From a virus (taxonomy: Duplodnaviria > Caudoviricetes): a stretch of 64,000 bases of DNA. Each line of letters starts with the position of its first letter. Positions within the stretch are counted from its first letter, which is position 1. The notes beneath the pieces were generated by a model that was not told the origin of the DNA, searched no databases, and was given only the letters and a program-made list of their open reading frames with translations. Made by a program: the position numbers and the translations under genes. Positions 3,001-64,000 of this stretch are shown here, piece by piece. Where the stretch lies: the IMG/VR virus record IMGVR_UViG_3300033463_000015; one strand, 5' to 3'.

Positions 3001-6000
3001 AAAATTGCTTCATTTCTTCGGCTATTTCGTAAGCGCTGCGATCATCATCATAAGATACACCAGAATAAGCTGTAACTGTAATATTACTATTTGTAGAAGC
3101 ATCTCCTCTTTCACTCTAAAGTATGAGTGGAGTATGACTGCGTGCTCCCATACTATTATTTTGTGGAGTTAAATACTACTAACCTAGCATTTTCGGACCT
3201 AATGAAGTTCTAAAATTATCTAAAATCTAAACCTATAATTCTCTTGTTCTTTTCTCTGCTACTGCAGCATCACGAGTTGCTTTACTAGACTAAGCACGTG
3301 CAGCAATTAATGCCTACTCTGCTTTTTCTACATCAATAATAGCATTTCCAGCTTCATCGTAAGATGAAATTAAATTAGGATATTCAGATGCCATAGTTGC
3401 CATAGCGTCTTTATAAGCCTACATATCTTCAGTAGAATTATACATAGCACTACGTAACTATTTAATATTATCTATTGATGATTGTAAACCTGTTACTTTA
3501 GCCTACTATTTTAATGCCTCATCACTAGCTTCCTAAGCTTCCTACTTAGCGTTTTCAATACGTTCAGCTAAAGTATAATTAGCACCATCAATAATAGCGC
3601 CTAAACCGCCAACTAAAAATCCACCAATCGCACCTATAGCAGCGCCCCAAGGACCAAAAGCCATACCCATAGAAGCTCCTGTAGCTGCACCCGAAATTCC
3701 ATTACCAATACCTGTCCATAATTTATTTGCTTCAATATCATCATCACTTTTAACAGTTAATGAAGCGCCATATGCAGTAAGTGCCGTACCAACCAATCGG
3801 CCGACACCAGATAGAAGACTTGTCCATTTCATTAAAGTTTCATGACCTTCCCATGAAGTTAATCCTTTCAATCCTCCAGTCTTATTGGCACCAGCGTCGC
3901 CTTGTGTCGCGGCAGTATGATGTGCTAATGCTTCACTATCTCTGTTTAAATGTAAAATATTCTTAAGCCAAGCTCCAACACTTCTATGGGTTGCATTAGT
4001 TTGCTATTCTTGTGCTCCAATGCTATTTACCTTTGTCTAAGCTTCCTAAACTGCTAAAGCTGCACTTTTTAGCCTTGCGACATGTTCTTGCTCTATACCC
4101 TTTTTATTTTCAATATGTCCAGATATTTCTGCAATAATAGTATCTAATTCTTGCTATTTTACGTTTAATTCAGCCTAGGCAGCCTATTGTGCCTAAATTC
4201 TTGCATTCGTTTCCTATGTGGTTGCTCCCTAAGAAGCCCTTGCAGCATTTTCTTTATCTTTATCAGCCTATGCCGCGCCTTCCGCTGCAGTTTTTAAGCC
4301 ATCAAGAACTTGCGTTACTTGTGTACTTTGCTAAGATAAACTATTAAATGACTATAATAATTGATCAATGGTTTGACCATATTGAGTATCAGGATTAACA
4401 TTATATTCAGCCATAAGTTCTTGTCTACCTTCTACTGTCTATAATGCACCTTTCTATTGATATTTAATTATTTTATCTAAAATATTCTCTCGTGTAATTC
4501 CATTATCTTCCAATGTTGGATTTGCATTCATTATTCTTCCAGTAATATCTTGACCTGTAGTTGTAATTGATGCCTAAATCTAAGTCTATAAATTTTGTAA
4601 TTTACTAGTATCAACTTCCAATTCAACTCGTTTAGTAACTGTTTCTTTTAACATCTATGTTAATTCTTTAGCTTTTTGTTCAGCTTCAGTTACATTTAAA
4701 TCAACTTTACTTTTTACTTGAGCAATTCTATTTTTTAAACTATCAATACCACCTTTAACGCCCGTTCCAAAACCCATTAAATTAATTAATGTTGGTAACG
4801 CTCCATTTTTTAATCCTAACTTACCAATAGTATTTAAAATTCTAGTAAGCCAACTATAAAAATCTTTTAACCCTTTTTCTAAATGTAAATCCAAATAAAT
4901 CTAAGAAAAAGCATTCTTTAATTGCTATGCTTTAGTTTCTAATGAATCCATAGTTTTAGCAGTTTGCACAATACTAGCATTCTATGAATTATTAGCAGTA
5001 TCAATAGCTCTTGATAATTCATCATAGTTAGAAACCAACGCAATAAAACGAGATTGCTGTCTATTACCAGCCATAATGGTAGCAATATAACGCTATGTAT
5101 TATTATCTAACGTATCCCATTTAGCCGCTAATTCTAAAATAACATCATCAAAATTACGAAACTGACCTGCAGAATCTTTAATAGAAATACCAATAGACTT
5201 TAATGCAGTATCTACTTTGTTAAAAGCAGCTTCTTCGCCATCAATATTAAGTAATTGATCCGGCGATGCTTTCATTTCACCGTAACGAGAAATGATTGAC
5301 TTTAAAGCAGAACCAATATTCTCTGCAGATTCACGAGTGGTTTGTACCATAACAGAAATAAATGCAGAAGTGCTTTGTAATGACATCCCCACGTTAGCCG
5401 CAGAAGATGCAGTCTTTTCCATAGCATTAGCAATTTCTGCAGAACTAACAGCGAAGTTCGCAGCCAAAGCGCTATATGTGTCAGTAACAGACTACGCTTC
5501 AGTCATTTCAATTTTAAATGCACGAATAGCTACTGTCATAGCATCTGCAGCTGCACTATACTCAAGTCCAGCAATTTTACCCATCTTTAATGTCTCAGTT
5601 GTTAAAGACATTACCTAAGCTGTCTATAAACCCTATTGATAAAAAATCTATGAAACCTTATAAACATCAGTTGTAGCAACGCCAAATTGTTGCGCCATTT
5701 CAGTATATTGCCCAATCTTACCCCATAATTCTTCCTATGTCATATTAGTAACAACAGCGATATTCGTAATTGATTTATCCAATTCTTTAATATTATTAAA
5801 AGCATTACGAATAGCTTGCGTTACCTTGCGCATTATAGCATAAACACCAATATATCTTGTAATAAAACTAGATATACCTGATAATTTATTAGTTGTATTA
5901 TCTAACTATTGTAACTATGCACGACCTGCAGCCGCAGCACGCCCTAAATTAGCAATTTCAGCACTTGCGCGATTATATAAATCTGCCATACCAGGCATCG

Positions 6001-7189
6001 CGGTTGCACCCTATAATAACGTATCCTATAATGAAGCTAAAGAAGCTTCTGGTCCTTTTAATGCATTTTCTAATTCTTGCTATTTAGCCTTTACCAAATC
6101 TTGCTATTCAGTAAAAGCTTTAAGCACACGCGCCGCCGCTTCATACTTTGCAGTAGTAGTATTAACCGCAGCTTCAGAAGTATCACGTTCCTTTACTTGT
6201 GCCTAATATTCCTAAGCACTTGCGACTAATTCGCTATAATTAATATTACCACCAAAAATTTTAGCGCCATATTCTTTATCAGTAACAGCTTTTCTTAACT
6301 CTTCAGTCATTGTGCTGCCAATTGCTTTAGCAGCCTCTCGTAAACGTCCACGAATATCATTTAACTATGAAGGTTCTAATTTAAATCTTTCGGCAAGCTC
6401 TGCAAAAAATCCATCAGCGCCCTTAAATCCTTTCTAAAAGCCACTCCAACCAGTACCTTCTGCATCAAGCTTCATATATTTACTTAACATCTGCTAAACT
6501 TCATTATATTTTTCAGCACTTGCTGGTAATTTATCAAAACCTTTAGTTAACCAATCCAATGCTTTTAAAGCATTTGAATTCTATCGTCCTTGAGCATTCG
6601 CATCTACTAACTAACTGTTCTATGCAAATTTACTCTTCTAAACAAGCAACTCATTATTAATCTAATTTAATTTAGTCTAAATAGTAGTATAAATTTCATC
6701 ATAACTTTTTTCTAACATTTTTGCCGCGGTGCCAGAGCCGAGCATAGTAGATAAATCAGCCGTAAAATTAGTATTTTTAAAAAGCTCCTATTTCTATGTT
6801 TCTTTAAAAGAAGTGAATCCAGCTTTTAACTCATTAATTTTAGTAGTTAATTCAGTTATCTAATGCTGTACACTAGTAGGAACTTTTAGATCTTTAAATG
6901 TTACTCCTGCAATACTACTTTTTACATGATCTAAACTGGTTTCAATTTTATGAGCCTCACGCTCTACTGAGCTAAAATCAGCTTCAGTTTTAAAAGCGCT
7001 TTTAGAACGCAATTCTAATTGATCTAAAGCACGTAAAACAGACTACAATTCTTTATTAATATTTTTACCTACAACAGAGTCTGGTAAAATTTTAGTTTTA
7101 CTTAAATCTCCTAACTATTTAGCGACTTCACGTAAATTAGTTATCTACGCAGTAATCGGTATAGTTACACCATTCTAGGTACCTGCCAT
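1..7189 (-). CDS. Tape measure protein (runs off the window; >2396 aa, TAG=Gln)
   Basis: ATG at 7189 after AAGGAG. ORF-track fragments 983-1219, 3542-3871, 4655-4894 and 5093-5467 share one frame and end in TAG. TMP motifs TRESAENIGSALKSIISR and (Q)RYIATIMAGNRQQSRFIAL; glycine-rich hydrophobic segments. Confidence 0.9.
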
Positions 7190-7216
7190 AATATTTCATC
7201 TCCTTTTTCGCAAAAT

Positions 7217-17601: not shown

Positions 17602-19385
17602 CCCCTCTTACGCGAAGTAAAGAATGTATAATTAGATATGTTCTTTCGTAATTTCTTTTTTGCTGCTTTATCTTCATAATACTTAACTCTATAAAGAGCA
17701 TATTCCATTGCGGAAAAGCGGTCTTTTTCAATGGACTTAGATATGCGCTCAACTTTAAACTAGTTCTAGACGCCAGTAGGCTTTAGCCGCAAGTTATTGC
17801 ATTCATCAATTAGTCGAGAAGTCATTTCATAAGGCATTAAATATACTCTTCTATCATAAAGAGACATTTTCTATCCTTTCTTGGTCTTAACTAATTTATC
17901 TTTTACAATTCTTTCGCTTGCTAATAAACTTACCGTGCCGTTATTTACTTGAGAAAAGAAATTAGAATGAATAGCATCGTCATTAGATGAACCTGCTTTT
18001 ATATCATATATAATAGCATTTAGTTCAGGACGAGGTTCTTCTGCTTCTACTTTCATTCCTGCTGGCAAATGATGGTCGTTATTAAAGACATAATATGCGG
18101 GAAATTGTTCTCCGGTTTTAGTATCATATGATGGTAAAACCATAGCATCTAATAAACCAATACCGGGGCCATTACCGTCGATTACAATCTCTCGCGGCTA
18201 AAATAACGAAATAAGTTTCTTTAATCTGGGAGCCTAATCGGTAATGTAGTTAGCACCGTGGATAACTTCCGTATATACTAAGTTCTTTTTAAAACCATCA
18301 GATTGTGGTAATACTTTGAATACCATAATAGCTGTATTTGCCGAATAACGAGCAACGTCTACCCCTATTATATAAAAAGTATTAGGGTTAGGTGGATTCT
18401 CCTATGCTTTGCGTTCGCATTTTAATAAAGTACGACGCTTATTAAGTCTGCGGGAATCCAACCACGCATCTTTATTGTTGCCAGTCCAAATTGATAAATT
18501 TTCACGCGAGAATGATTCTTCACTTACAGTAGAGGAATAGCGCTGGTCTAATAAGGTTGCTTTATCTAAAAGCCCGTAATGTAAGGGGACCTCATATGAT
18601 AGGCCCCAAGAAAAATATTCGTTTGGCCGCAAGACAGCATTGATGGTTATTTCTATAAGTTTCTAATACATAAATACTGTGCGTTCGGCGCTAGTAGTGA
18701 TGAATATCTGAGCAGCAGATGGTTCCTCTGGATTTAAAGTGCCATCCACTTCTCTTCTTTTAATATTCATTTGCGGCACTAGAACTTCGTTATATGGGAC
18801 TTCTTCAATAAGAGCTGCCTCTTCAAGTATTGCGGCAGTAGCTCTCAAACCACGAGAAGTGTCCTTGGATACAACAGAAATCATTGAACCATTCTTGAAC
18901 CACAATTCATAGTAGTTGCCGCTAGCCTTTTGACCTGTCTTACCATCTTCAGTTCTAACAGCTAGCTCTTTGCGCAATAAAGGCCAATGTCTAAATATTT
19001 CTTCAAACTTAGCTTGTGCGATTTTAATAACTGTTCCTTTTACGTCAGAAGCAATCATTATGGTTGAATTAGGTAGTAAAACCGCACGCACGATAGCGCT
19101 CAAGTAAGCAGTAAAAGATTTAGAAGTAGCGCGTGTTGCGGTCCAGAAATGATAACGATAGCGCATTGAAGCACGAAGTGAAATGCGCTAAAAGGGCAAT
19201 AAATGGAAATGCTTCGCATCATCTGGATCCTATATAGCGTCTAAAAATAAGTCAGGATATAGTAGCCAATAATTTAGATAACTAGTAAAGAGTTCCTAGT
19301 TGGCATCTAGGAACTCTCGGGTAAGGACTACTCCTTTTTCAATTGGGATACCATCACGATAGCATAAGTCGGTTCTCTCACTCAT
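17598..19385 (-). CDS. terL: Terminase large subunit (595 aa, TAG=Gln)
   Basis: ATPase motifs TRATSKSF, RGLRATAAILEEA, FITTSA; RuvC-like FYIIGVDVAR, IVIDGNG, KDRFSA; fragments in one frame. Confidence 0.9.
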
Positions 19386-20310
19386 TCAAATCACCGGCAA
19401 GCTCATCCTCGCCCTCATACTCTATATCGGCAGTATCATCAAACTCAACCGCCTCATTTTCAATTTCTTCCAGCCGCTCGGTCATATTATAACGAGCCTT
19501 CTTATCTTCTACTTGTTCAGCAAAGTTGCCTTCATTTATAACTAGCCGCTTCAAGTAGTTCTAAATATTCTACATCATAAAGTCCATTGAATCTTGCGGC
19601 TCGGTATGCCATTTGGGGTGCCAACCCTTTTTACCATAATAGACCATAAGTTCACCAACTGACTCAAAGTCGGCCGCATTTTTAGCGTTGTTAGCCTCAA
19701 ATTTACAATTCTTAATAATGTCTGAAATGGCATCCATATCCTTTTTTACATCTAAGCCTTCACGCATAGTTTTCTTCGCGCGCAAGGTAAGCTCGCAGAG
19801 GTCTCGCGCACGCTACTTTAAGATTGGGGTTGAAACATTTTGAGTGGCAATAATCTAGTTATAATAATCCTCCAAGAATAGAAGTTCTTCTTTTGTATAA
19901 GAAGGAGACCAATCTTTCTTCAATCTCTTCATTTTTGATTCTGAAATTTTTTCAATTTCGTCGTCTATGGTACCTTCTTCGCGAGCTAGCCGCCAACGTT
20001 CATTTTCGTCAGCCCAGCTTATGGCCGCGTATCTATCATCAAGTAAGGTATTGAAATAAGCCGATAGCGTATGATCTTTATGTATCTCATACAACTAAGT
20101 CCATTTATTAAGGTCCAGCGGCAAGTCAAGATAGCGGCATAGAGCGTCTACCTCGTTGAGGTTGTCTTGGTGAATTAGGGTTTCTAAACAGCTTGTGCAA
20201 ATAAGAGAACGATGGCCGGGAAAGAATGGAGATTTTGTTGGCTAAAAGGCATACTCAGGTTTGTCCTGCTTACATTTTAAGCACTTGCGTTTCTTTATTT
20301 CGTTGGTCAT
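19378..20310 (-). CDS. Zn-finger protein, putative terminase small subunit (310 aa, TAG=Gln)
   Basis: N-terminal CxxC...CxxC; in frame with fragments 19855-20094 and 19570-19785; directly upstream of terL. Confidence 0.6.
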
Positions 20311-21583
20311 TTACACTTTGACCTCCTCTTTCAATACGGCGTAGTTTTTCACACTCTTTACAGTTAGAGGAAAAACCGTCCTTTCTGTTTTTGTTACACA
20401 CGAAAAATAGCTTATGACGTGGTAGCTTGCGGCCGCACGTATAGCATTGCTTTAGCTCCTCTTCAGGGGTTTCGCAAATGAGACGCCACTTTTGGGCTGT
20501 CTAAGCTAGTTTTTCGGGTATCTCTTTAGAAAGTATTGTACATAAGTAATTCTCAGTATATTTTAGGCCGTATTTAATCTATAAATTTTCAACAATTTCT
20601 CCATAAGGTACTCTATTTATTTTTTGTTCAAGTATGAAGTCGCGCACTTCGGACAAGTGAGCCATTTTGCGATAACGTTCAAAGTCCCATATTAAAGTGC
20701 GGCCGTAGGTATCTAGCTTCTCATACAATTGGTCGTAGAGTGGGTCATACCAGTTGAGTAGCGCCTTAATGTGAATGGGGTTCTCCCAATCGAATATATG
20801 TTCTCTTACAACCCAGCGCACTTCTTCTTCGCCAGTCCAAGGATTTATGCGTGTTTCATAATCATTTATATCTTTGGATATGTGACTTAGTAGCGCATTA
20901 TCTACACGCTCTTGCCATTGAGCGCGCGACATCCAGTATACGGAGTCACTAGTCCAATCAACGAATTGTTGCTTGGGGTGATCTATGCCGGGGAAATGGA
21001 GTTCGGGTTTATATACATCTTTTAAGTAGTATTGGTGTCGCCGCAAATCAACTAACCAATGCTTTAACTAATAAAGGCGATAATCGTCTTTAATAATGGG
21101 GGTTGTGTCGTCGGCGGGCAACTTGTCTTCATTTACCGCAATGGTATGTTCCATACGGTCAATGGAGTCCCAAAGTTCCTTCATGTATGGAATGTTGGAG
21201 TCACCTGGATCAATTAGTGCGCCAGTTTTCTTATCATATTTTGGCTTATTAATACAGGGTTTAGGTTTCTTATATACCGATGGTTTATGCCTCTATTCAA
21301 GGGTTTGCTGGTCGGCCATTGGGTTCTCCAGTAACTCATCAAGCGATAGCAACTTATCGTCCATAGTTTTAAATGTACTATACCTCTTATTAGAATCTGT
21401 AATTTCTTTGCGCTAAACCGTGTTTTGGTTGTTTTCGTCTTTACCATAAAGTATGTAGTTGGCCATTTGTTCAAGTTCGGTGTTACTTGGCACCTTCTCC
21501 AAACGGTCAAGTATATCATAGATAGCGGCGGTACGGTCAGTATCGCGCTCTATTGAGTAGTCAAGGGAATACGCTTTTTTCAT
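20270..21583 (-). CDS. Hypothetical protein with C-terminal Zn finger, first gene of the late operon (437 aa, TAG=Gln)
   Basis: ATG 21583 is in frame with fragment 20579-21046; C-terminal CYTC...CKEC. Confidence 0.7.
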
Positions 21584-21611
21584 TGAATTCAACACCTCTT
21601 TGCCTATGTAA

Positions 21612-21641
21612 ATTATAACATACGGGGCTTGGCGTTGTCAA
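21612..21641 (-). promoter_or_regulatory. Sigma-A promoter of the morphogenesis operon
   Basis: TTGACA-N18-TATAAT with extended TG on the minus strand. Confidence 0.7.
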
Positions 21642-22106
21642 GTGTTTGAGTGCTTTATTTTTAAGGCTGATAGGCTTTAAATTTTAAAAAAGTTGGTGGA
21701 ATTTGGGCACGCCCCCACAGTTAGTCTAAACTAACTTGGTTTTTTCCCGAAAGCTAGCCCCCGGGGCGCTGAAGCTGAAAGCTAGAGCTAGGATTCGATG
21801 GATCCGGCTCAAAAATTGTTACAAAAGTGTTACAAAATCGGGTGGGGTGTAGCAATTTTGACCTAATTCGCGGAGACGGGGGTGTGGTCATTTTAAAATT
21901 GAAAAAATTTTCCAAAACCACCCTGGGTTTTTCCGTGGGGTGCCCTTCGCCGCGGGACCCCCTGTCCCCATTTGAAAAATAGAAACGCGCAAGCGGGAGT
22001 TCCTCCACCGCAGGCACGGCCGCGGGGCCGCGAGCACCGGGGGATTATGGACCGGATCGGGAAAGTGGGCGCTTGTTAAAAATTTAACAAGCGCCTCCAC
22101 CGCGGT

Positions 22107-22570
22107 TACTTTAGCGCATTAAAGCGCTAAAGTAATTGTCTCTATTCTTGGATCCGGACGCGAGTTAGTTTAGACTAACTAACTCCTCAGCCTCCACCAT
22201 TCGCAGGAAAGACGTTAGCGCATTAAAGCGTTAAAGTCCGGATCCTTTAGTGCATTAAAGCGCTAAAGTGGGCGAAGGTCAAAGTCAGTCAAAGTCAGGA
22301 AACTTTAGCGCGTTAAAGTGTTAAAGTCCTCCACCTCTTTAGCACTTTAGTGCGCTAAAGTATCCTCCACCGCCGGGCGCACTTTAGCGCGTTAAAGTGC
22401 TAAAGGGAGGCGCGCTTTAGCGCGTTAAAGTGTTAAAGCGTCGCCGGATCTTTAATGCATTAAAGCGCGAAAGTCCGGAATTGACAAGAATTTAACAATC
22501 ACTTTAGCGCATTAAAGTATTGAAGTCGTTATGAAAGTATAACGACTTTAGCGCATTAAAGCGTTGAAGC
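22107..22570. repeat. Array of ~10 CTTTAG-N4-(C/T)TAAAG palindromes (HisR-like operators)
   Basis: Copies near 22107, 22214, 22245, 22301, 22343, 22380, 22413, 22450, 22500, 22544; most carry an extra half-site 9 bp on. Confidence 0.85.
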
Positions 22571-22655
22571 TAATTTGCGATTTTCAACTTCCGGTGTTTA
22601 AGAAAAAGTTAGCCTCCACTAACTGTTATGAAAATATAAGAAAAGGCCGCCGCCT

Positions 22656-23108
22656 TTAGGCGGTGGCCGCAAGGGCTTTCCGAAGGGACTTTTCGTTTAC
22701 AAGTTCCGCGCCGTCAAACTTGACTTGCACTTGTTCGCCGTTGATTTCGAGGTCTCCGGCAACCCAGAACGGAGTAGAGTTCTTTTCCCACGGCAGGCCG
22801 TTCATTTCCGCCGTGACCCGTTCGAAGTTGTCGCCCGTGTTGTGCTTCGGGTCAGCCGTGAGCAGGTCAGCCGTGCCGATAGCCTTGACCGCGCCCGCCG
22901 CGATCAGCGCCGCCTTGGTGGCCTTGTCGAAGCGGATGCGGATTTTCGCCGCGCCGCCGCGCTTGGTGCTTTCATGGTCAAGCCGCAGGGCCGCCGCCGG
23001 GATTTCAGCGAAGTAACCGCCGTAGAGGATACCGCGCAGGACGAAGCCGATATAGTAGATGGTGGCGGCGGTCAGTTCGGTGTAGTTGGTGAGCAGGTAG
23101 TTCATCAT
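22656..23108 (-). CDS. Family A protein (putative PD-(D/E)xK-like fold)
   Basis: Own promoter and RBS; paralog of 30307 and 31069; G..FE...GDL...QxK pattern. Confidence 0.85.
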   Translation of the reverse strand: MMNYLLTNYTELTAATIYYIGFVLRGILYGGYFAEIPAAALRLDHESTKRGGAAKIRIRFDKATKAALIAAGAVKAIGTADLLTADPKHNTGDNFERVTAEMNGLPWEKNSTPFWVAGDLEINGEQVQVKFDGAELVNEKSLRKALAATA

Positions 23109-23208: not shown

Positions 23209-23427
23209 TCAGTCGCCGCACATATCCCACGCCCACAGGGTCAGCACCGGGACGGCTTCGCCGAGGACTTCCTCGGTAGCGGTGAGGTCGATGCCGTTTT
23301 CCACCGCCCACATGGTGAAGTCGTCGAAGTCCTCTTCATAGCACCGATACAGGGTCATTTCATAGTCAGCGGCATCGTCGAAGTCCTCGGTGGCGTAGAC
23401 GGTTTCGAAGTATTCGCGGATAGTCAT
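23209..23427 (-). CDS. Acidic hypothetical protein (72 aa)
   Basis: Own promoter, RBS, GC3-rich codons. Confidence 0.8.
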   Translation of the reverse strand: MTIREYFETVYATEDFDDAADYEMTLYRCYEEDFDDFTMWAVENGIDLTATEEVLGEAVPVLTLWAWDMCGD

Positions 23428-23584
23428 TTTTGAAGTCCCCCTTTTTTCTTCGGTATCTCTACCGTGACTAAAGTATAGCACATAACAGCCGGCCTGTCAA
23501 GCACTTTTTTCGCCACCGGGCAAATTTTTTTGCCCGGTCACCGGATCAGCGCCCAGGACCACCAGTAAAAGTCAAAGAAAGTCA

Positions 23585-24528: not shown

Positions 24529-24580
24529 TTATCCACAGATTTATCCACAACAAGTCACCTTGTGGATAAAGTTATCCACA
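24529..24580. promoter_or_regulatory. Cluster of four perfect DnaA boxes
   Basis: TTATCCACA at 24529, 24541 and 24572; TGTGGATAA at 24561. Confidence 0.9.
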
Positions 24581-26158: not shown

Positions 26159-26250
26159 TGCGGTGTCCTCCTTTTCTTTCGGGGTTCCTCCCCGTGACTA
26201 TATGATAGCACAGCCGGCGGGATTTGTCAAGAGGTTTGGAGGACTTTTTT

Positions 26251-26391
26251 TCAAGTCCCCCAAACCTCCTCATTCGTCTCCTCCACATAGATGCAAGCAT
26301 CATCATCAAAGCCACACAGCACAATCACCGCATCCTCGTCATACTTCGCCAGCAGTTCCCGCAGTTCCTGAACCGTCATCTTCGTTGCCAT
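26251..26391 (-). CDS. Family E small protein (46 aa)
   Basis: Near-identical to 27939-28079. Confidence 0.85.
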   Translation of the reverse strand: MATKMTVQELRELLAKYDEDAVIVLCGFDDDACIYVEETNEEVWGT

Positions 26392-26502
26392 TTTTGTAGC
26401 CTCCTTTTCTCTTTCCCCTTGGTACAGTCTCATTATAGCACCGATTGCGGGATTTGTCAAGCCCTTTTTGAAACTTTTTTTCGGCCGGACAGGAAGACCG
26501 CT

Positions 26503-26709
26503 TTAGCGGTCTCCCCATTCCTCCTCACTCACGTCCCACACGTAGACGTTGCCCTCCACCTCCAGCCAGAAGCACAGCACGCCATCCGCGTCCTCATCGA
26601 GCCAGCCCTCGGCCGTGGTAGCCTTCTGGATACCAAGCGCATAGCCACCCCACACAGCACCCGTAAGCAAAACCACAACCACGACCACGATTGCCACTTT
26701 TTTACCCAT
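26503..26709 (-). CDS. Small membrane-anchored protein (68 aa)
   Basis: N-terminal hydrophobic helix, own promoter. Confidence 0.8.
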   Translation of the reverse strand: MGKKVAIVVVVVVLLTGAVWGGYALGIQKATTAEGWLDEDADGVLCFWLEVEGNVYVWDVSEEEWGDR

Positions 26710-26796
26710 TTTGAAATCCTCACTTTCTGCCCTATCGGGGCACTTTCATTGTATCACATCACGCGCCGCTTGTCAAGAGGTTTTGCGCCCGCGGCC

Positions 26797-26958
26797 TTAG
26801 CCGCGGGGCACGGTGACGCGGGCCACCACCTTGCGCACCTCCCACACCTTGCCGCTCAGCGCGGTGCGGACGCGCGCGGCCTCCACGGCCTTAGCCTCGG
26901 TCATATAGACCTCGCCGCCGATGAGGTTGCCACAGTAGATACGGAAGTAAGTCAGCAT
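26797..26958 (-). CDS. Hypothetical protein (53 aa)
   Basis: Own promoter and RBS. Confidence 0.75.
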   Translation of the reverse strand: MLTYFRIYCGNLIGGEVYMTEAKAVEAARVRTALSGKVWEVRKVVARVTVPRG

Positions 26959-27029
26959 TTGGATTGCCCCTTTCTCTTGGTGTGATTTTATTATAGCATA
27001 GGTGAAACGATTTGTCAAGAGGTTTTTTC

Positions 27030-27220: not shown

Positions 27221-27420
27221 AGTATATTACCACAGACCGCCCCGAATGTCAAGCCCTTTTTGAAATTTTGTCCCGGAAATTTTTTCGGCCGCAGGAAGCC
27301 CAGGCGCTTTAGCGCATTAAAGTGTGAGGATCCGGCGACCGGTTAGTCCAGGCTAACTCTGCCGGCACGCGGGTTTTTTATGACTAACCGCATTGTTATA
27401 AAAAAAGAACGGGTTTGACC

Positions 27421-30012: not shown

Positions 30013-30088
30013 AGTTAGTTATGACTAACCGAGTTAGTTGAGACTAACTAGAGTTAGTTATGACTAACCGAGTTAGTTACCGCTAACT
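30013..30088. repeat. Four tandem AGTTAG-N6-CTAAC palindromes at the transcription divergence point
   Basis: Copies at 30013, 30032, 30052 and 30071. Confidence 0.9.
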
Positions 30089-30306
30089 ATTTTGCCGGCA
30101 TTGCCTCGCCTGGCGAGGTACCTCACGTGCCGAGGTACCTCACGCTTTAGCGCACTAAAGTGTGAAAGTGTTACGAAAGTGTTACGGAAGTATTACGAAA
30201 AGTTCATAGAATCTTAACAGAATCTTAACAAAAAAGGGCTTGACAAAACTGGCCGGAGGGCTTATAATCTAAGCGTACCAAGGGAAAAGAAAAGGAGGCC
30301 ACCCCG

Positions 30307-30753
30307 ATGATGAACCGCGACGAAATGCTCCGCACCTACAACGCGCATAGCGCGGCCGACGCCTACGTGCTCGGCTTTGCCTTCCACGGCGAGCTCTTCG
30401 CCATCGAGCTGCCCGAGCTGCCCGACGCCGTGCTGAAGCTGGACCACGCTTCCAGCAAGCGCGGCGGTCAGGCCAAGATCCGCGTGCGGGTGGCCAAGGC
30501 CGAGAAGCTGGCCCTGATCGCCATGGGCGCGGCCGTGATCGGCAAGGTGGAAGACCTCGAAGCTGACCCCCACCACAACCGGGGCGAGAACTTCGAGCGC
30601 ATCGTGACCGAGCTGAACGGCCAGCGCTGGACCAAGGACAGCGTGCCCTTCTGGGTGGCGGGTGACCTGAACCTGAACGGGCGGGAGCTCCAGATCAAGC
30701 TCGACGGCGCCGAGCTGACCAACGAAAAGACCCTCGCGGGGCTGGTGGCGTGA
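30307..30753 (+). CDS. Family A protein
   Basis: Paralog of 22656 and 31069; promoter at 30240. Confidence 0.85.
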   Translation: MMNRDEMLRTYNAHSAADAYVLGFAFHGELFAIELPELPDAVLKLDHASSKRGGQAKIRVRVAKAEKLALIAMGAAVIGKVEDLEADPHHNRGENFERIVTELNGQRWTKDSVPFWVAGDLNLNGRELQIKLDGAELTNEKTLAGLVA

Positions 30754-31068: not shown

Positions 31069-31521
31069 ATGATGACTTACGAGCAGATGGTTACCGCCCA
31101 CAACACCCTCTCCGCCGCGACCCTCTACAACATCGGCTTCATCTTCCACCACACCCTCTACGGCATCGACCTGCGGCACATCCCCGCCGAGTGCCTGAAG
31201 CTTGACCGGGCTTCTTCCAAGCGGGGCGGCGCTCAGCGCATCCGGGTGCGGCTTTCCAAGGCGGTCAAGATGGCGCTCATCGCGATGGGTGCTGAGGCCA
31301 TCGGCCCCGAGACCCTGCTTGACGGCGATGACCGCTACAACAAGGGCGAACGGTACGAGCGCATCGTCACCGAGCGCGCGGGTCAGGTGTGGGTGAAAGA
31401 TTCCGTGCCCTTCAACGTGGCGGGCGACCTCTTCCACAACGGCGAACAGATTCAAATCAAGCTTGACGGCGCGACCCTCGTTGAGGAAAAGACCCTTGTG
31501 CGGCTTCTCGCCACAGCGTGA
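31069..31521 (+). CDS. Family A protein
   Basis: Paralog of 22656 and 30307. Confidence 0.85.
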   Translation: MMTYEQMVTAHNTLSAATLYNIGFIFHHTLYGIDLRHIPAECLKLDRASSKRGGAQRIRVRLSKAVKMALIAMGAEAIGPETLLDGDDRYNKGERYERIVTERAGQVWVKDSVPFNVAGDLFHNGEQIQIKLDGATLVEEKTLVRLLATA

Positions 31522-43262: not shown

Positions 43263-43582
43263 TATGATGCCCTCCTTTATTTCGCGCCTTTCAGCATCTT
43301 TATTGTATCGCTTTTCCTAGCTTTTGTCAATAGGTTTTTGAAAAAAATTTTTATGCCGGCATAAAAAATCGTGCCGGCAAAATTCTGCCGGCGCCACAAG
43401 ATACTCTCCCACCTCTACCATATTATCACAAAGTTGTCAAGTTGTCAAGCCCCAAAGTGTTACAATTGTGTTAAGATTTTGTTACAAAATTATGACGCAG
43501 CCTTGTCAAGTGTTTGACCTGTGTCAAGTGCTTACCGGCTTCCAAATTCTGCCAACCGGATCCTTATATTATAATATAGCGC

Positions 43583-43769: not shown

Positions 43770-45158
43770 TCAGCTGGCCTTCTTTAATCCTACGATCCGG
43801 TATTGCTTTATATGAGCACGCCCATACTTGCGTTCTTCAAATTCTATCTCGTCTCCCCATTCTTTTGTTACAGCCTACCACGTCAGGAGCTGCTTTGTAA
43901 ATGTCTTATCATAGACAACATAAGTCTATAGTAATTCTTTTATCTCATCCTTATTATGCCAAGTATAGTAGCAAGCTGAAAAGTGCCCATCTTCTCGCAC
44001 AAACTCTACCAGCATTTTTGCCGCAGATAAAATATACTTACGCTCGGGCGCATAACGCGCTCTAATAAATTGACCAATATCCATATAATTACGAGAGTTG
44101 CAAATCCAATCTTGGAACCGTGTATCATAAATATCTATGCCGCGGCCCGCGACCTAATTGGTTATAACGCAATCATATTCTGGCGGAACCATATGATGTT
44201 CATTAATATACTTTAATCCTTCACGCTGCTTATCAGTAACGCAGCCACGCCAATCAGGATTATTCTCGAACGACCATAGCGTTAAGACGTGAAAGCCCTT
44301 TGCCGCAAACTACTCTTGCAGCCGCATAATATCAGTAACACGTTCTGTATATATCCAGGGGCACATATTCTTATCAGGACATATCAAACCATCGTTAAGA
44401 GCTGCAGAAACACTTTCAATAAAGACAGTTTCTTTGGCGTCATAGATTTCATCAATCTTGCCGCGCATAATATAATTAATATAATCACCGAACAAAGAAG
44501 CTGCTATCTCTGGAGTAGCAGACATCGCGATTAAACGTATTCGTGCGGGCTCCAATATAATAGTATGAATACTATAGATAAAAGCTGCAATAGAAGTGTG
44601 GCGGCCTTCCTATAAAAGGTTAGCAAGCTTCTCTTCTTTTAGATCCGGGAACGTCTTCTTGACTTGCCGGATCTCAGCTTCATAGTATTGCTGCACATCA
44701 TCAAACTCATCCCATACAATTAAATCTATATCATCTAACCATTCGGTATCACGTCGTATAAGAGCTGCAAAAGTTTGATAGCACATTATGTGTATCTTGT
44801 CGCTATCATCCTCCACCGTCCATACGCGTTTCTATCTATGTGCCAGCCAGCCATCTAAGTCTGTATCAGCAAACACTGTAGTAATATCTGGATAGCGCAG
44901 ATGAATATTATCGCGCAGCACCATTGTGTGGACAAGATATACTATATGTTTTTTCGCACGCGAAAAGCTGAGGATGCGCGGATCAAAACTAAAAGTAGTC
45001 TTGCCACATCCCCTCGGTGCTTTCAGCACATTAAATTGTCCTGGCTAGATACGCTCTAAATCTTCTGCCTATATAATAGAAGATAAGAACTACTAGTGCT
45101 CTATCGGTTGATGCGCGCTTACCTACGTAAGCGGCATGGTAATAATTTCCTGTCCCAT
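43770..45158 (-). CDS. SF2 helicase-like protein, putative origin-binding protein (462 aa, TAG=Gln)
   Basis: Three fragments in frame: Walker A APRGCGKTT, Walker B IVWDEFD, motif III AMSAT. Confidence 0.8.
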
Positions 45159-57808: not shown

Positions 57809-57850
57809 AAAAATAAGAGGGGACCATCAGGTCCCCTCATTTTTTATTTT
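57808..57850. terminator. Bidirectional terminator
   Basis: GAGGGGACC/GGTCCCCTC hairpin flanked by A- and T-tracts between convergent genes. Confidence 0.8.
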
Positions 57851-59335
57851 CTTTTCAAGTTCATTAACTCTATTTGCTAGCTCTGCTAATAAAACTTTAA
57901 TATTATTTAGTTCTTCTTCAATCAATGTATTGTCATTATCATCATCGTCAGGTTCTTCAATAATTACAGGCGTCTCATCTACAGGCTTAATTCTACTTTC
58001 AAGTAAAGTCCAAGTCTGCTTGCCGACTATGCCATCTATTAATAAACCTTCTTTCTATTGGAAAGCACGAACTGCTGCATCAGTTTTCGCGCCAAAAGCG
58101 CCGTCTGCTAAACCGCAATCATAACCAAGCGCTTTTAACATAGTTTGAAGTTGCTGAACCTCTGTTCCTTTGCTACCTTTTTTAAGTGTCTTCATAACTT
58201 TTACCTCCCCGGCATTGTTAATTTCTTTATTATCATATAGTCCTACTGGTATGGCATAATGAGTCCAAGCTTTATCGGCTACAGATCCGTGCTATACATT
58301 TACAGAACAGTGAATAATTTCACCATCACCAATATGTAAGCCAGTATGTGCCATCTTACCAGTTGATTTATTATATTGGAATACACAACATACAACATTA
58401 GGCATATCTTTAATCTCGCCTTTTTGTACCCAGTTGGGATTATGGTTATACTGTGAAGTACATCCGCCGCCTTCAAGAGCAACGGCTCCGGCTTCTTTTA
58501 AGCAGTAATAAGTAAAACCACGGCAATCGAAACACTTTGTGCCATTCCACTTGCACTTTTCACACGCGCCGTCTTTGGTACCATTAAGTACCTGACATTT
58601 ACTTATAATAGTTGGATGGTCACTTCTTGCTCTACGTTTTCTATTAGCAGGAGTGCAAGCCTCTCCCCAGGCGCCGAACACGTATGGCCATCCCATACAG
58701 CCCTTGGCAATCTCTACTGCCTTCTATGCTTTTACACTCATTTCTTTCACCCCTGTGGCTCCATATTCACCCATAAGGGTGGTATTTGGATAATAAAATT
58801 CAAGTATCTATTTATATGTGAAGCCTTGACTTGCGGCATATCTAGCACCCCGCTAGCTCATACCTACACCGTGGCCAGTTTTGCTGCCACCTGCGGCTGC
58901 ATCCCAAGGGTCATCATATGCTAGCAAGTATCCTCTTACACCGCCCCAACGTTCTTGACTTGATACTGTGCGGCCGCCATTACTTGCAGAGAACACAGTG
59001 CTTGCGGCTTTACCGCCATAAAATAATACTTGTCCTGCAGTTGCATTAGTTGCATCAATACAATTCTAATATTTACTACTATAGCGTGGAGCTCTATAGG
59101 CTTGGGCGCTAGATGATGCGTCTGAAATTGGCGTTCCATTTAATACTCCACGAGACATTGCATAGGTGCGGCTAGCTACTGCTTGAGCCTTTAAGGCTTC
59201 TGGACCGCCAGAGGCAAATTCTGATGCTACTACTGCGGCGACATATTGTTCAAATTCAACTTGTACAGTATCACCAACATTACAGCCAAAGTAATTAGCA
59301 TTTTCTGTTCTTGTTATTTTTACTGATATTAACAT
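57827..59335 (-). CDS. Endolysin/cell-wall hydrolase: SpoIID/LytB + NlpC/P60-like + PG-binding (502 aa, TAG=Gln)
   Basis: EALKAQAVASRTY, GHGVGMS(TAG)RGA, FDCRGF...HTGLH, LKKGSKGTEVQQLQ...DGAFG...DGIVGKQTW in one frame. Confidence 0.9.
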
Positions 59336-59515: not shown

Positions 59516-62500
59516 ATGGCTAAAATTAATCAATATTCTCCTACTAACTGGACTGGCGGCGATGAAATTACTGCGGATAGTTTAAATAATATTGAAGCAG
59601 GCATACGTGATGCAACAGCCGCAATTGTTGAAGCCCAGAATGGAGATTAGTCATTACATTAGAGAATTAGTGCTATTGAAAGTGCTACTGGCGTAGATTA
59701 TGGTGACAGTATTAGTAGCTTAAGAACAGATGTTAATAATTTATCTAATTCTTTAACTACTATATAGGGCCAATATACAACTATTGCTGGTAATATTCCA
59801 GCTAATTTATAGGCCACACTTGCTGCAAAAGCTAATAGTAGCGATGTAAATAGTACTCTGGATACTTTAACTGCGGCAATTAATACTATAAAAACTGCCG
59901 TTGATGGATATAATGATACTGAAAATGAAGTATTAGCCGCGCATTCTAGTTTAGCTTTAAATACCGATTATGCTAGTTTAGATGCACGTTTTGAAGCTAT
60001 TGAAACCACTATGAATTCTGCTGGAGCTACGACTAGTGGGTTAGGAACTAGAGTTACCGCTCTTGAAAATGCAATGCCAAACAAAGCTTCTGCAACTGAT
60101 TTAGCTACATTAGCAAACGCAGTTAATGATACTACAACTGGTTTGGCCGCCACAAAAGCTATTGCAGATGCGGCGGTTACCAGTGAAGAACTCACTAGTG
60201 CGTTAAGTAGTAAAGCAAGTACTACTACTACCGATGCATTAGATACTCGACTTGATGCTATTGATGGTGGAGCCGCATTAACTGGTAATACACTTGTATC
60301 AAGAGTAACTGCATTAGAAAATAATCCATCTTCTGCTACTGTAATCATTAATAAAAATTTAATTATTTATAATAATAATGGAATTCCTATTGATATTGGG
60401 CAAGAAGTTAGTGCTGATAAAGACTATTTATTATAGGGTACTGATGATAAATATTATTATTGGAAGTATATAAATGATAATTGGTAGTTAATTAGCGGTG
60501 CTGGCGGAAATAATGATGATTTAACAGAGGATATTAAAAAATATAATATTATTAAATATACTAATGATGAAGAAGTATCTTATTTATATTTCTTTGAATA
60601 TGATTATGGTTATGATAATTCTTTAGATGATACATTAGCACAGCAATTTACTAATTGGACTTCTGGAACTACTTATTCAGTAAATGATTATGTGCTATAT
60701 AATAATTATATTTATCAATGTATTACTGCAAATTCCGATGCTACATGGGACGTTACACATTGGAACAATCTTCATGTTAAACTATTAAATACTATTGAAT
60801 TACCGCAAGGAGGCGGAGGCACTGTATCAAATACAATTACTATCTCTAATTTAGTTCGTCCAACAAACGTTAGTAATGGTGCCGATGCTATATTTAGTTT
60901 TACTGCGATCACTAATGATGAAAGTGATATTACTAGTATTAAATGGTATGTAGATGGTATTGAAATATCACCTAATGAGGCAGTTGAAATGATACCAGCT
61001 AGTGGATGGGGCATTAGCGGGACAACCTTTAAATTTAATGCTAAAGGTCTTTTAAAAGAATCTGATAGAAGTACCGTACGTGTTGAAATGATAAGTGAAG
61101 GAGCGGCGACTTTTTCTCGCTCTTGGCCAATTCAAAGTAATGAATTTTCTATTAGTTGGAATAATACTATTTAGCCAATTATGTTATATACTAATGGAAA
61201 TGCTGTATCTACTATTGTTAATGTTATTGCTGCAGCAAATAGCAGTAATATTGTAGAAATAACAGTAAATAATCATAGTAAATCTTAGACTGTTATTGGC
61301 ACTAATAATGTAACGTTTAGTTTAAACGCAGAATGGTTTAATAGTGGTAAAAATACTGTTACAGCAAAATTAAGAAATCCAGCAGATGAAAATGAGGAGA
61401 ATGTAAAAACAATTCATTATATCGCATTATGGGGATATAATGCTACTACTCCATTGATTGCATTTGCTGACAGTGAATTTGAAGGGCAACAATATGAAGA
61501 AATTTTAATTAATTATTATGCTTATAACCCTACTAATGAATCCACTACAATCACTCTTACTTTTAATGATAGCAATTCTAATCCTATATCTCGCACTGCT
61601 GTAGTTGGGCGTGAAATGCAAACATATAGATATACTTCTAATAATGTTGGTACGGTTACTGCACAATTAACTACTACTTATGAAGTAAATGAAACTATAC
61701 AGGCAGTAAATGACACAGCAACGATAAGAATTAGTGCGAGTTCTTATAATTTAGGAATTGTTAGTGGAGAAAATTTACAATATAATTTTGATCCAAATGG
61801 TCGTAGTAATAATGATTTGGATAGAACATAGTTTGCTGGTAATATTATTTTTAGCGAAAATTTTGACTGGATTAACGGCGGCTTTAAACAAGATCCAAAT
61901 GGTTCAACCGCTTTTGTGGTTAAAAAAGGAAATACAATTACATTACCACGAACATTATTTTTAGAAGATGATGATAATGGTAAAACTATTGATATTTGTT
62001 TTAAAGTTGCTAATAGTGATATATATGATGCTGAAGCTATACGAGATATTGATAGTAATTCTAGTAAAGGTATCGTATTAAAAGCAAATTATGGAGAACT
62101 TTATTTAAATAATAGTACTCCATAGATTTTTAGATATTGTGAAGAAAATAGAATTGATATGTCAATACATGTAGAGGGAACAGTAAATCAAAGAATAGTT
62201 ACCGTTTGGCTCGACGGCATTCCTAGTTATGTAGGAGAGTATACAAGTGAAATGCTTGAACAAAAAAATACTGCTGCTACTATAATTGGAAGTGAACATT
62301 GCGATGTATGGGTATATGCTATTAGAGTATATAATTCAGCATTATCTGAAAAAGATATGGTACAAAATTATATTGCTAATGGTGTTAACATTAATGATAA
62401 AATTAAACGCTATACTGAAAACAATATTTATGGTAGTAGAATAAAGACTGTTTCTGGCCAAGGCATCGAATATTATTCTCATACTGAAATTACTCCAGAA

Positions 62501-64000
62501 CAATTACATATAGCTATGCCTGATTTAACTATTGTTGAAATTGAAGCTGACAGAATGACAAAAACAAAGTCTGATCCTGTACCAGCGCATGTTATCATTA
62601 CTGATCGTATTTAGACAACGGAAGGAAATAAAGTTTCTTATGAAGATCGAATAACTGAATTAAACGCAGCAACCACTGATACAAGTAAGGACGGCTGTTT
62701 GTTTAAAGTTCAAGGTACTAGTTCAGTTGCTTATGCACGCTCTGCATTAAATTTAGATATTGATTTTAAAAATTGTAAAGATGCAAATCAAAATAGTATT
62801 AAATATAAAATTTCTGATAGTTCTATTGGAGTTAATTATTTTAATATTAAGGCTAATGTTGCATCAAGTGAAAATGCTAATAATGTATGCGCAGTAGATT
62901 GGTATAATACCTACCAGCCATTCAAAATTGAAGCAAGGAAAGAAAACAGTTCTGTACGTGATACGATAGAAGCAAAGCCTTGTGCCGTTTTCTTTAAAAA
63001 TACAAGCGCAAATACAATATGGATCGGTAGTTAGTAGGTCGCGCCTGGTGAACAAACACTATATTTTATGGGCGATTTATGTAATAGTAAAAAGAATCTT
63101 GAAGTATTTGGAGAAGATGGCACTGGAGAACATTATACTAAATGCTGTATTGAAGATAGCGGTAATGATACACTAGAACAAAGATTCTTGGCCGCACCTG
63201 TATATAATAATGAAAATGATCAATGGGATAGTTATGATCAAAGTCAAGGAAAATATGTAAAGCATTTTGAATGGCGGATGGAGCCAAATGAAAATGATAA
63301 GCAAGCTTGCATTACTGCTTGGACTGAAACTGCTACTTGGGTGGTAAGCACTATTAATAATCCAGAAAAATTTAAAGCTGAGTTTGACCAATATTTTATA
63401 TCTCAAGCAATGCTTTATCATTTCTTAATGATTGAATATTTTGCTGCATATGATAATGTAAGCAAAAATACTTTCTATAGTTTTGATTGGGATGAGAATG
63501 CCGATTAGACAAAATGGGGTGGCTATCGTTGGAGTATTAACAAAGCATATGACTGGGATACCATTTTAGCATATGATAATGATGGCAAACCTTTAGGTGA
63601 CTATGGCGTAGATTTTGGTGACACTGAAAATGGAAAATCTTTGTTTAATGCAGCGGATAATCCTATTTGGAATAATATTCAAACTGCTTATAAAAATGAA
63701 TTAAATGCTTTATATATACAACTAAGAGGCCAAGGCGCTTGGAATTCTAATGTAATCGCATAGAAATGGAATGAATATCAAGCATTAAGACCACATGCAG
63801 CAATGGTAAGAGATGCATATGTAAAATATATTTATCCTTATAAAACAACAGGAGTTATTATAGATACAAATCCATTAGGATATGATAATAACTACATTGG
63901 CCGCCTTGCAGGTAGTAAAATTTACCAACGTACTCAATATTTTACTTATCAAACAAGTTATATGGACGGTAAATATAGTTATTATAATCAAAATGATGCT
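59516..64000 (+). CDS. Giant virion/tail protein with LamG-like and CotH-like domains (partial, >1495 aa, TAG=Gln)
   Basis: AGGAGG RBS; seven ORF fragments in one frame; IGSEHCDVWVYAIRVYNSALS (LamG-like); VQGTSS, DNVSKN, YDWDT (CotH-like). Confidence 0.8.

Follow-up and report, generated by a model that had tools for sequence, protein, structure and literature searches.

A large phage of the Caudoviricetes (Duplodnaviria), IMG/VR virus record IMGVR_UViG_3300033463_000015, carries in a practically gene-free gap an array of ten operator units of the kind recognized by HisR, a TrpR-family repressor that binds DNA only together with histidine. The array occupies 22109-22569 of the 64,000-nucleotide stretch of DNA analysed here (the window). 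Judged by motif identity and by three-part architecture, its units are native-type, near-consensus HisR operators. The explanation ranked first, and held with slightly less than even confidence, is that they form a putative binding platform for the HisR of the host, most likely a sponge; binding by HisR, its titration and a benefit to the phage are all inferred from the sequence. The phage itself is a large, TAG-recoded one of the gut or rumen, with a Clostridia-type host, and is related to SPbeta and Geobacillus virus E3.

Architecture of the array

Repeat search and site alignment across the window place the ten units, about 24 nt each, under the consensus ACTTTAGCGCATTAAAG-YG-YTAAAGT (Y = T or C), and the repeat search yields a 30-nt family with 10 copies within 22103-22569. 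An earlier reading of the same DNA (the original prediction) had proposed about ten operator-like copies at 22100-22570, which is borne out both by the ten units and by the frequency of the 16-nt core CTTTAGYGCRYTAAAG: with at most two mismatches allowed, it has 26 strand matches in the window against 0.39 expected, a number that none of 100 shuffles equals. The three 20-mers quoted in that prediction are found where it put them, at 22380-22399, 22343-22362 and 22500-22519. The 20-bp palindrome cacTTTA-N6-TAAAgtg has 23 matches in the window against 4.8 expected, and the direct pair formed by the second and third half-sites has 19 against 0.48.

Each unit consists of the half-site CTTTA, a TAAAG 11 bp on and a second TAAAG 8 bp further, which in the view from the other strand makes two overlapping 16-bp palindromes offset by 8 bp. 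A third half-site had been predicted at an offset of 9 bp; it is present in 10/10 array units, three of them with a weakened copy, but its offset is 8 bp. Unit 1 (CTTTAGCGCATTAAAGCGCTAAAG) lies at 22109-22132 and is followed by unit 2 at 22213-22236, whose first half-site is weakened (CGTTAG), unit 3 at 22245-22268 and unit 4 at 22303-22326. Unit 5 (22337-22360), recovered by half-site pattern search and site alignment, is the sole inverted unit and reads on the minus strand; the other nine are oriented alike, on the plus strand. Unit 6 (22382-22405) was identified by consensus match, as its 20-mer at 22380-22399 equals the HisR consensus at 14/14 specified positions. Unit 7 lies at 22415-22438, and the last three units are those with a weakened third half-site: unit 8 at 22450-22473 (CGAAAG, 22468-22473), unit 9 at 22502-22525 (TTGAAG, 22520-22525) and unit 10 at 22546-22569 (TTGAAG, 22564-22569). 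All units other than 5 and 6 come from the repeat search and site alignment.

Start-to-start distances between neighbouring units are irregular (104, 32, 58, 34, 45, 33, 35, 52 and 44 bp), and the spacers are unrelated in sequence and uneven in length. The centres of the units are near-uniform within this phage, mostly GCGCAT or GCGCGT. The core recurs in the window outside the array only at 27307-27322 and 30145-30160, where the single copies predicted near 27305 and 30143 are thus real. The first is a single 16-nt palindrome with no third half-site, just past a terminator and a GTTAG-N6-CTAAC site; the second belongs to a single three-part plus-strand unit (30145-30168, third half-site TGAAAG) within a divergent early-promoter hub. 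The positional skew is strong, with 10 of the 12 sites packed into 460 bp of the 64-kb window.

The gap that holds the array spans 1,060 bp (21596-22655), between the terminator of the gene orf150 and the promoter of a gene for a sigma-factor-like protein that heads the late operon. It had been described as gene-free, and this holds in practice: there are just two short frames, of 87 and 70 amino acids (aa) from a start codon (96 and 76 aa from stop to stop), and guanine-cytosine (GC) content is flat over the three codon positions. The array lies past a terminator and 470-930 bp upstream of the late promoter, its nearest downstream promoter, which is full-consensus for sigma-A and has no HisR site close by. 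Measured to the start of the promoter, the centres of the single sites lie upstream by about 97 bp (27307 site, leftward promoter 27252-27224) and about 122 bp (30145 site, promoter 30240-30268). No site, in the array or single, overlaps a -35 or -10 element of a predicted promoter.

Identity with native HisR operators

The HisR consensus for members of the Firmicutes, Actinobacteria and Synergistetes is cacTTTAnnnnnnTAAAgtg (PMC9413887), the very motif that the original prediction had named. Array copies differ from it by 0-3 mismatches over 14 specified positions (11/14 to 14/14, the 22380 copy being perfect), the two single sites likewise by 0-3, and many native sites in the site tables of PMC9413887 match the consensus less well than these phage copies do. 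HisR of R. gnavus binds its hisX site in a histidine-dependent manner (PMC9413887). A half-site spacing of 8 bp and tandem dimer binding are known for TrpR (PMC9413887; PMC8745587), so that the tandem half-site geometry ascribed earlier to the family is sound, and the 8-bp third half-site of the phage units fits tandem binding by a TrpR-family protein.

How closely do the phage units resemble operators that stand before histidine genes? The exact pattern CTTTA-RYRYRY-TAAAG-YRY-TAAAG was searched in one genome per species for 185,579 species; frames starting within 400 bp downstream were clustered and their representatives scanned with Pfam. The pattern occurs at 103 loci, mostly in gut and rumen Clostridia, and a gene of the his regulon starts within 400 bp downstream in 42/103. 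The genes at these 42 loci include 28 hisZ (PF13393), 10 SBP_bac_3 genes of hisX type, 6 hisR (PF01371) and 3 permeases of YuiF type. The majority consensus of 43 native operators, ACTTTAGCGCATTAAAGCGTTAAAGT, is identical to that of the phage units, and the identity extends to the preceding A and the following T, both of which were left free in the search pattern. Because the native his-operator consensus carries the third half-site, this half-site is part of the native operator. By published consensus and genome-wide native operators alike, the match proposed by the original prediction is excellent.

The identical three-part sequence also stands upstream of a conserved 269-aa protein without a Pfam family at seven loci (L129, L131, L152, L158, L165, L207 and L216), mostly in metagenome-assembled genomes (MAGs) of Segatella copri. 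These Bacteroidota copies are unrelated to his genes and may reflect a different regulator or chance.

Conservation in related phages

Many IMG/VR contigs matched by the bare 16-mer proved to be relatives of the phage. Sites of the form CACTTTA-N6-TAAAGTG are present in the gap upstream of the sigma-like gene in 9/10 relatives, with copy numbers of 10 in the window and then 7, 6, 4, 3-4, 3, 2, 2, 1 and 0. Even close relatives have unequal copy numbers (10 in the window, 4 in L001), gap length ranges from 393 to 1,061 bp, and the distance from array to late promoter varies from about 240 to 930 bp. The motif is unchanged across relatives in which the identity of the sigma-like protein falls from 84% to about 23%; it is found upstream of that gene also in L108 and L070, where the protein is only 23-30% identical. 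The centres of the sites differ among relatives but keep an alternating purine-pyrimidine pattern. A motif that stays constant while phage proteins diverge is what a conserved host factor would predict. A search of the first 50 kb of Geobacillus virus E3 for an array of HisR type, in its general or Bacillaceae form, found none.

Candidate binding proteins

Which protein would bind these units? The Pfam family PF01371 (Trp_repressor) was searched in six frames, reading through stops. The closest relative, whose complete genome is 179.6 kb long, gives no match at E <= 1. In another eight viral records with an array no match passes the cut-off of the family, the best being a single one of 16 bits (E 0.001). 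A hidden Markov model (HMM) built from six bacterial HisR proteins recovers every HisR in the bacterial loci; run with --max on all six frames of the window it gives no hit (best E 6.9), nor does it give one in any array-bearing phage locus. As no such repressor is found in the window or the sequenced relatives, the phage most likely binds or soaks up the regulator of its host. True HisR proteins (94-106 bits) are encoded in the MAGs G010, G014 and G015, which hold array-bearing contigs. A portal-protein search of the 185,579 species genomes found no prophage relative.

Among phage gene families, orf150 alone goes with the array, flanking it in many relatives. The window has three paralogs of about 150 aa, some 50% identical to each other, at 22656-23108 on the minus strand and at 30307-30753 and 31069-31521 on the plus strand, and one of them follows the single site at 30145. 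The AlphaFold model of orf150 is confident, with a predicted local distance difference test (pLDDT) score of 94.8, and shows a mixed alpha/beta fold with no helix-turn-helix. Structure searches give at best a Foldseek E of 0.07 against the PDB and a VIA-align Z of 2.9, and in the Atlas only viral hypothetical proteins. On its modelled fold orf150 is rejected as a TrpR-like binder, although it may bind DNA in another way. Its invariant D119 and K130, together with the near-invariant Q128, call to mind a D...QxK motif of nuclease type.

The frame 23209-23481 (90 aa), also considered as a DNA binder, is really a very acidic protein of 73 aa and unlikely in that role. This D/E-rich protein (23209-23427, minus strand) has its own promoter; relatives keep it, in synteny with orf150, and the composition would suit an inhibitor or DNA mimic.

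Sponge, switch or phage operator

Under the sponge explanation, HisR charged with histidine would occupy the units. The two overlapping palindromes with their 8-bp offset leave room for two HisR dimers in tandem per unit, which would give the array a capacity of about 20 dimers for each copy of the genome. With replication of the phage DNA this capacity would be multiplied and set against a handful of native operators; HisR would be soaked up, and the host genes for histidine synthesis and uptake would lose their repressor. Capacity is the most likely effect because the sites do not overlap core promoters and because copy number and distance vary freely in relatives. The pattern fits selection for binding capacity better than it fits a precise switch.

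Several observations weigh against a sponge. The fixed position upstream of the late and packaging operon, kept over deep divergence, suggests a cis-acting role, which a position-free sponge would not need. In four relatives (L003, L087, L038 and L217) the motif is dispersed over 15-22 early-gene junctions, like a phage-wide operator. The late proteins are poor in histidine (1.09%), and histidine synthesis uses phosphoribosyl pyrophosphate and adenosine triphosphate, so that the gain from derepression would not be obvious. No hisR is seen in 3/6 MAGs with related contigs (G011-G013), which are incomplete bins. The window represents 64 kb of the phage genome, and a cognate protein could be encoded elsewhere in it. 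Finally, one 1.6-Mb Clostridia MAG (G014, Horse_feces285, L123-L220) has 40 CTTTA-RYRYRY-TAAAG sites on about 30 contigs, and the motif is therefore not confined to his genes. Many of the G014 sites are followed by a flank resembling GGGGGACGGGGGTGC, and their count is far above that of a his regulon; they may be binned phage or a dispersed element.

Could host HisR act in cis instead? The array would then be a histidine-responsive insulator, roadblock or sensor between the early terminator and the late sigma-like gene, and together with Rex, LexA, CtsR and WalR sites it would let the phage read the condition of its host and time its late genes, like the CtrA-dependent deferment of lysis. A role of this kind accounts for the kept position, the neighbouring host-regulator operators and the histidine-poor late proteins about as well as a decoy does. 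Even at 23-30% identity, a terminator always stands immediately before the array, which in turn lies upstream of the sigma-like gene, and in L038 the succession of terminator, LexA box, HisR unit, Rex box and promoter is repeated at at least eight junctions. LexA, holo-HisR and Rex are DNA-bound in unstressed cells and released under stress, a shared behaviour that would give such junctions a coherent logic. A precedent exists in the CtrA-site-dense intergenic regions that regulate phage transcription (PMC9437464). Against a cis role, no site falls on a -35 or -10 element, neither copy number (0-10) nor promoter distance is conserved, the late promoter has a full sigma-A consensus and no HisR site nearby, and ten units far exceed the need of a switch. 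Since the position is kept, the late proteins are histidine-poor and histidine synthesis is costly, regulation in cis is given an appreciable share of the probability, even if it is judged unlikely.

It is also conceivable, if still more doubtful, that a phage-encoded protein binds the array as a pac- or cosB-like site, as origin iterons or as a phage operator, the likeness to HisR sites being mimicry or convergence; the orf150 family and the sigma-like protein would be candidates. Repeated sites beside a terminase module are typical of pac and cos sites, and here the large terminase gene (TerL) starts 2.2 kb downstream of the array. The order of array, sigma-like gene, phrog_3314, TerL and portal is conserved in relatives, so that the repeats adjoin packaging genes throughout; orf150 flanks the array in many of them, and its paralog follows the 30145 site. 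The stoperator-like spread in L003, L087, L038 and L217 resembles the operators of phage repressors, as with the SPBRE sites to which MrpR binds. Such a binder keeps some probability, as the window shows just 64 kb of the genome. The motif, however, equals the native his-operator consensus in its 14 positions, alternating centre, third half-site and flanking bases, and it stays constant while phage proteins fall to 23-50% identity. A TrpR-family gene is not detected in nine viral records, and orf150 is modelled without a helix-turn-helix and has no known relative. Pfam and PHROGs searches find no initiator family in orf150 or the sigma-like gene, no recognised small terminase subunit (TerS) next to the array and no ParA/ParM with an adaptor or ParB, the late-side neighbours being the sigma-like gene, phrog_3314 and TerL. 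Four more motif classes in the same DNA equal host-regulator consensus sequences, a coincidence hard to accept. The alternative of a terminase or initiator array, raised by the original prediction, is weakened but keeps some probability.

An improbable origin is a junction cassette amplified locally by slippage or unequal recombination, with copy number under no selection. The very uniform centres within this phage, the single orientation of nine of the ten units and the different copy numbers of the window and L001 would suit it, but the unrelated, irregular spacers are unlike traces of tandem duplication, and every copy keeps half-sites close to the consensus, as do the arrays of many diverged phages with differing centres. 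Least probable by far is an action as RNA, a transcript with a row of short hairpins: each 16-nt palindrome could form a stem of 5-6 bp, but the gap has no Rfam family over threshold (best 22.5 bits against a gathering score of 79), the arms are invariant while the loop varies, with no compensatory changes among relatives, and the region is set between a terminator and the next promoter.

Comparison with known systems

With native Firmicute HisR operators (Ashniev et al. 2022, PMC9413887) the phage units share the 20-bp palindrome, the alternating centre, the third half-site and the flanking bases. The arrangement differs: native operators come one unit per promoter, a few per genome and close to the promoter, whereas the phage stacks ten in gene-free DNA with no his gene near.

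A close phage parallel is found in the CtrA-dense regions of phages of Alphaproteobacteria (Mascolo et al. 2022, PMC9437464), which likewise hold an intergenic excess of sites for a host regulator that the phage lacks and recur in several phage lineages. CtrA is a response regulator of the cell cycle in another host phylum, unlike the metabolic, co-repressor-dependent HisR. Its sites lie in promoter regions and have a shown effect on regulation; the HisR sites here lie upstream of promoters, off the core elements, and are known from their sequence. This phage, in addition, combines sites for several host regulators.

In E. coli, datA is a chromosomal titration locus for DnaA. Like such a locus, the array consists of clustered sites that overlap no adjacent promoter. 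Transcription-factor sponges (PMC8599769, PMC7826281) are also clusters of high-affinity sites that regulate no gene of their own and are expected to lower the free regulator, but these loci and sponges are cellular or engineered, and here the array would be phage-borne. In SPbeta, the SPBRE sites are bound by MrpR, a phage-encoded recombinase-like master repressor (PMC10516654). SPBRE is an operator dispersed in the intergenic DNA of large Firmicute phages, as are the GTTAG-N6-CTAAC palindromes of the window and the HisR-like sites of L003, L087 and L038; it differs in having a phage-encoded binder, as no cognate phage protein was found here and the motif is that of a host regulator.

GIL01 and CTXphi are phages that depend on host LexA through one or two LexA boxes overlapping promoters. 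What they would have in common with this phage is the reliance on a host repressor instead of, or besides, one of their own; the differences are that up to 10-24 sites stand outside promoters here and that an amino acid would be the signal sensed by the regulator. Phage gaps with dense clusters of host-regulator sites (CtrA) and single LexA boxes in several phages are already known. The searchable literature shows no HisR operators in phages, no arrays of them and no cassettes for several host regulators, and it describes no natural phage-borne sponge for a metabolic repressor.

If HisR binds, the array would be a natural case of a virus that captures or reads a metabolic regulator of its host through naked DNA sites instead of proteins. 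The CtrA precedent, a single well-studied case, would extend to regulators of the amino-acid, redox and SOS kind in Clostridia of gut and rumen, and the array would offer a directly testable model of natural regulator titration. Operator motifs that are specific to a host lineage would provide a marker for host prediction from sequence, and such platforms would give a reason why large phages retain long gene-free gaps. For annotation, repeat arrays beside terminase genes would not necessarily be pac sites or origins.

Sites for other regulators

Sites of other regulator types are interspersed with the array. A perfect clostridial Rex box (TTGTTAA-N4-TTAACAA; consensus from PMC4600107) lies at 22073-22090 beside unit 1 and one with two mismatches at 22481-22498 beside unit 9; the window has three perfect ones. 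Within the gap, TGTTAC-N5-TGTTAC at 21817-21833 (plus strand) fits the WalR consensus TGTWAH-N5-TGTWAH, to which the window has six matches against 0.52 expected. More WalR-consensus repeats stand at 30163-30230, in the divergent early-promoter hub, and at 43458-43485, at 43.4 kb. Within the array, the plus-strand direct repeat GGTCAAA-N3-AGTCAAA (22277-22293) resembles the CtsR consensus; such CtsR-like sites number four in the window against 0.10 expected. Four perfect DnaA boxes (TTATCCACA) within 52 bp (24529-24580), 2 kb from the array, are a candidate origin or DnaA titration site, and L086 has eight DnaA boxes in two clusters beside its own HisR array. LexA boxes are not enriched in the window (2 against 0.99 expected), but L217 has 20 of them together with 22 HisR-like sites within 8 kb.

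That several unrelated motif classes equal the consensus of a host regulator makes coincidence or phage mimics unlikely, and because other host-regulator sites share the gap or occur in relatives, the HisR array looks like one amplified part of a general platform. Stacks of HisR, Rex, LexA, DnaA, CtsR-like and WalR-like operators may accordingly be read, tentatively and with the chances somewhat against it, as a protein-free means of host takeover or sensing in which the HisR array is the most amplified element. In a takeover, the replicating genome would drain these regulators and reprogram the histidine, redox, SOS and stress regulons; in sensing, the phage would cede its own control to a panel of host repressors released under stress.

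The junction cassette of L038 (IMGVR_UViG_3300021387_001758), repeated at at least eight early-gene junctions between 3400 and 10260, consists in order of a terminator, a LexA box (AGAACATATGTTCG), a three-part HisR unit, one or two Rex boxes, an AT-rich stretch and a sigma-A promoter. On the Clostridia MAG contig JAZNAJ010000077 (L217), a gene-free stack of 1.5 kb (5655-7214) holds about 15 HisR-like sites intermingled with about seven LexA-type boxes (GAACAAATGTTC), and an AT-rich core; HisR-like sites stand at each small-gene junction of this contig, and its MAG encodes hisR.

A further palindrome, GTTAG-N6-CTAAC, is probably the operator of a phage regulator. Where 0.05 perfect copies would be expected, the window has 21; they stand at early-gene junctions from 21720 to 41938, with four in a row at 30014-30087. 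Three lie in the gap, at 21720-21735, 22164-22179 and 22608-22623, at an exact spacing of 444 bp; duplication was rejected as its source, as the two intervals are 25% identical. The element GGTGGAGG, in the minus-strand reading, has six copies in the gap (21996-22620) and three in the gap of L001, with no start codon after them.

The phage around the array

The upstream border of the gap is the intrinsic terminator of orf150 (22642-22663, minus strand). This gene (22656-23108, minus strand) is the last leftward early gene, and its confident model corresponds to no known fold. The downstream border is the consensus sigma-A promoter of the sigma-like gene (21612-21641, minus strand; TTGACA, 18 nt, TATAAT, with TG), which is kept in relatives. 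The gene itself (20270-21595, minus strand) encodes a 441-aa protein with a zinc-ribbon tail and five in-frame TAG codons. Its C-terminal third resembles the "sigma factor" GP4 of Geobacillus virus E3; homology to the E3 "endonuclease" GP11 was rejected on comparison, and no sequence relative was found in the PDB.

In the left third of the window almost no long frames are seen with table 11; once TAG is decoded as a residue, an unbroken leftward operon emerges between 21595 and 2. It runs from the 441-aa sigma-like protein (PHROG "sigma factor") through the 310-aa phrog_3314 and the large terminase to the portal and virion proteins. The frame at 19378-20310, proposed earlier as TerS, is open only with TAG as a residue and matches phrog_3314, a family of unknown function, so that this assignment is not supported. 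Terminases of Geobacillus virus E3, Brevibacillus phage Sundance and SPbeta-type Bacillus phages share 32-37% identity with the one in the window.

On the early side (22.6-30 kb), codon-position GC points to mostly short minus-strand frames of under about 160 aa as the likely genes. Pfam and PHROGs find almost no matches among some 20 early-region proteins and no family in the flanking early frames scanned, including the 253-aa plus-strand frame 26224-26985. GC content is 50-57% at 22-43 kb and 32-42% elsewhere in the window. In the standard code, the 22-43 kb region resolves into numerous short transcription units, every one of them provided with a consensus sigma-A promoter, a GGAGG ribosome site and a hairpin terminator. 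Late and structural genes that need TAG as a residue lie at 2-21595, 43770-45158 and 57827-59335 on the minus strand and at 59516-64000 on the plus strand, and one TAG-recoded frame of at least 2,396 aa contains 97 TAG codons.

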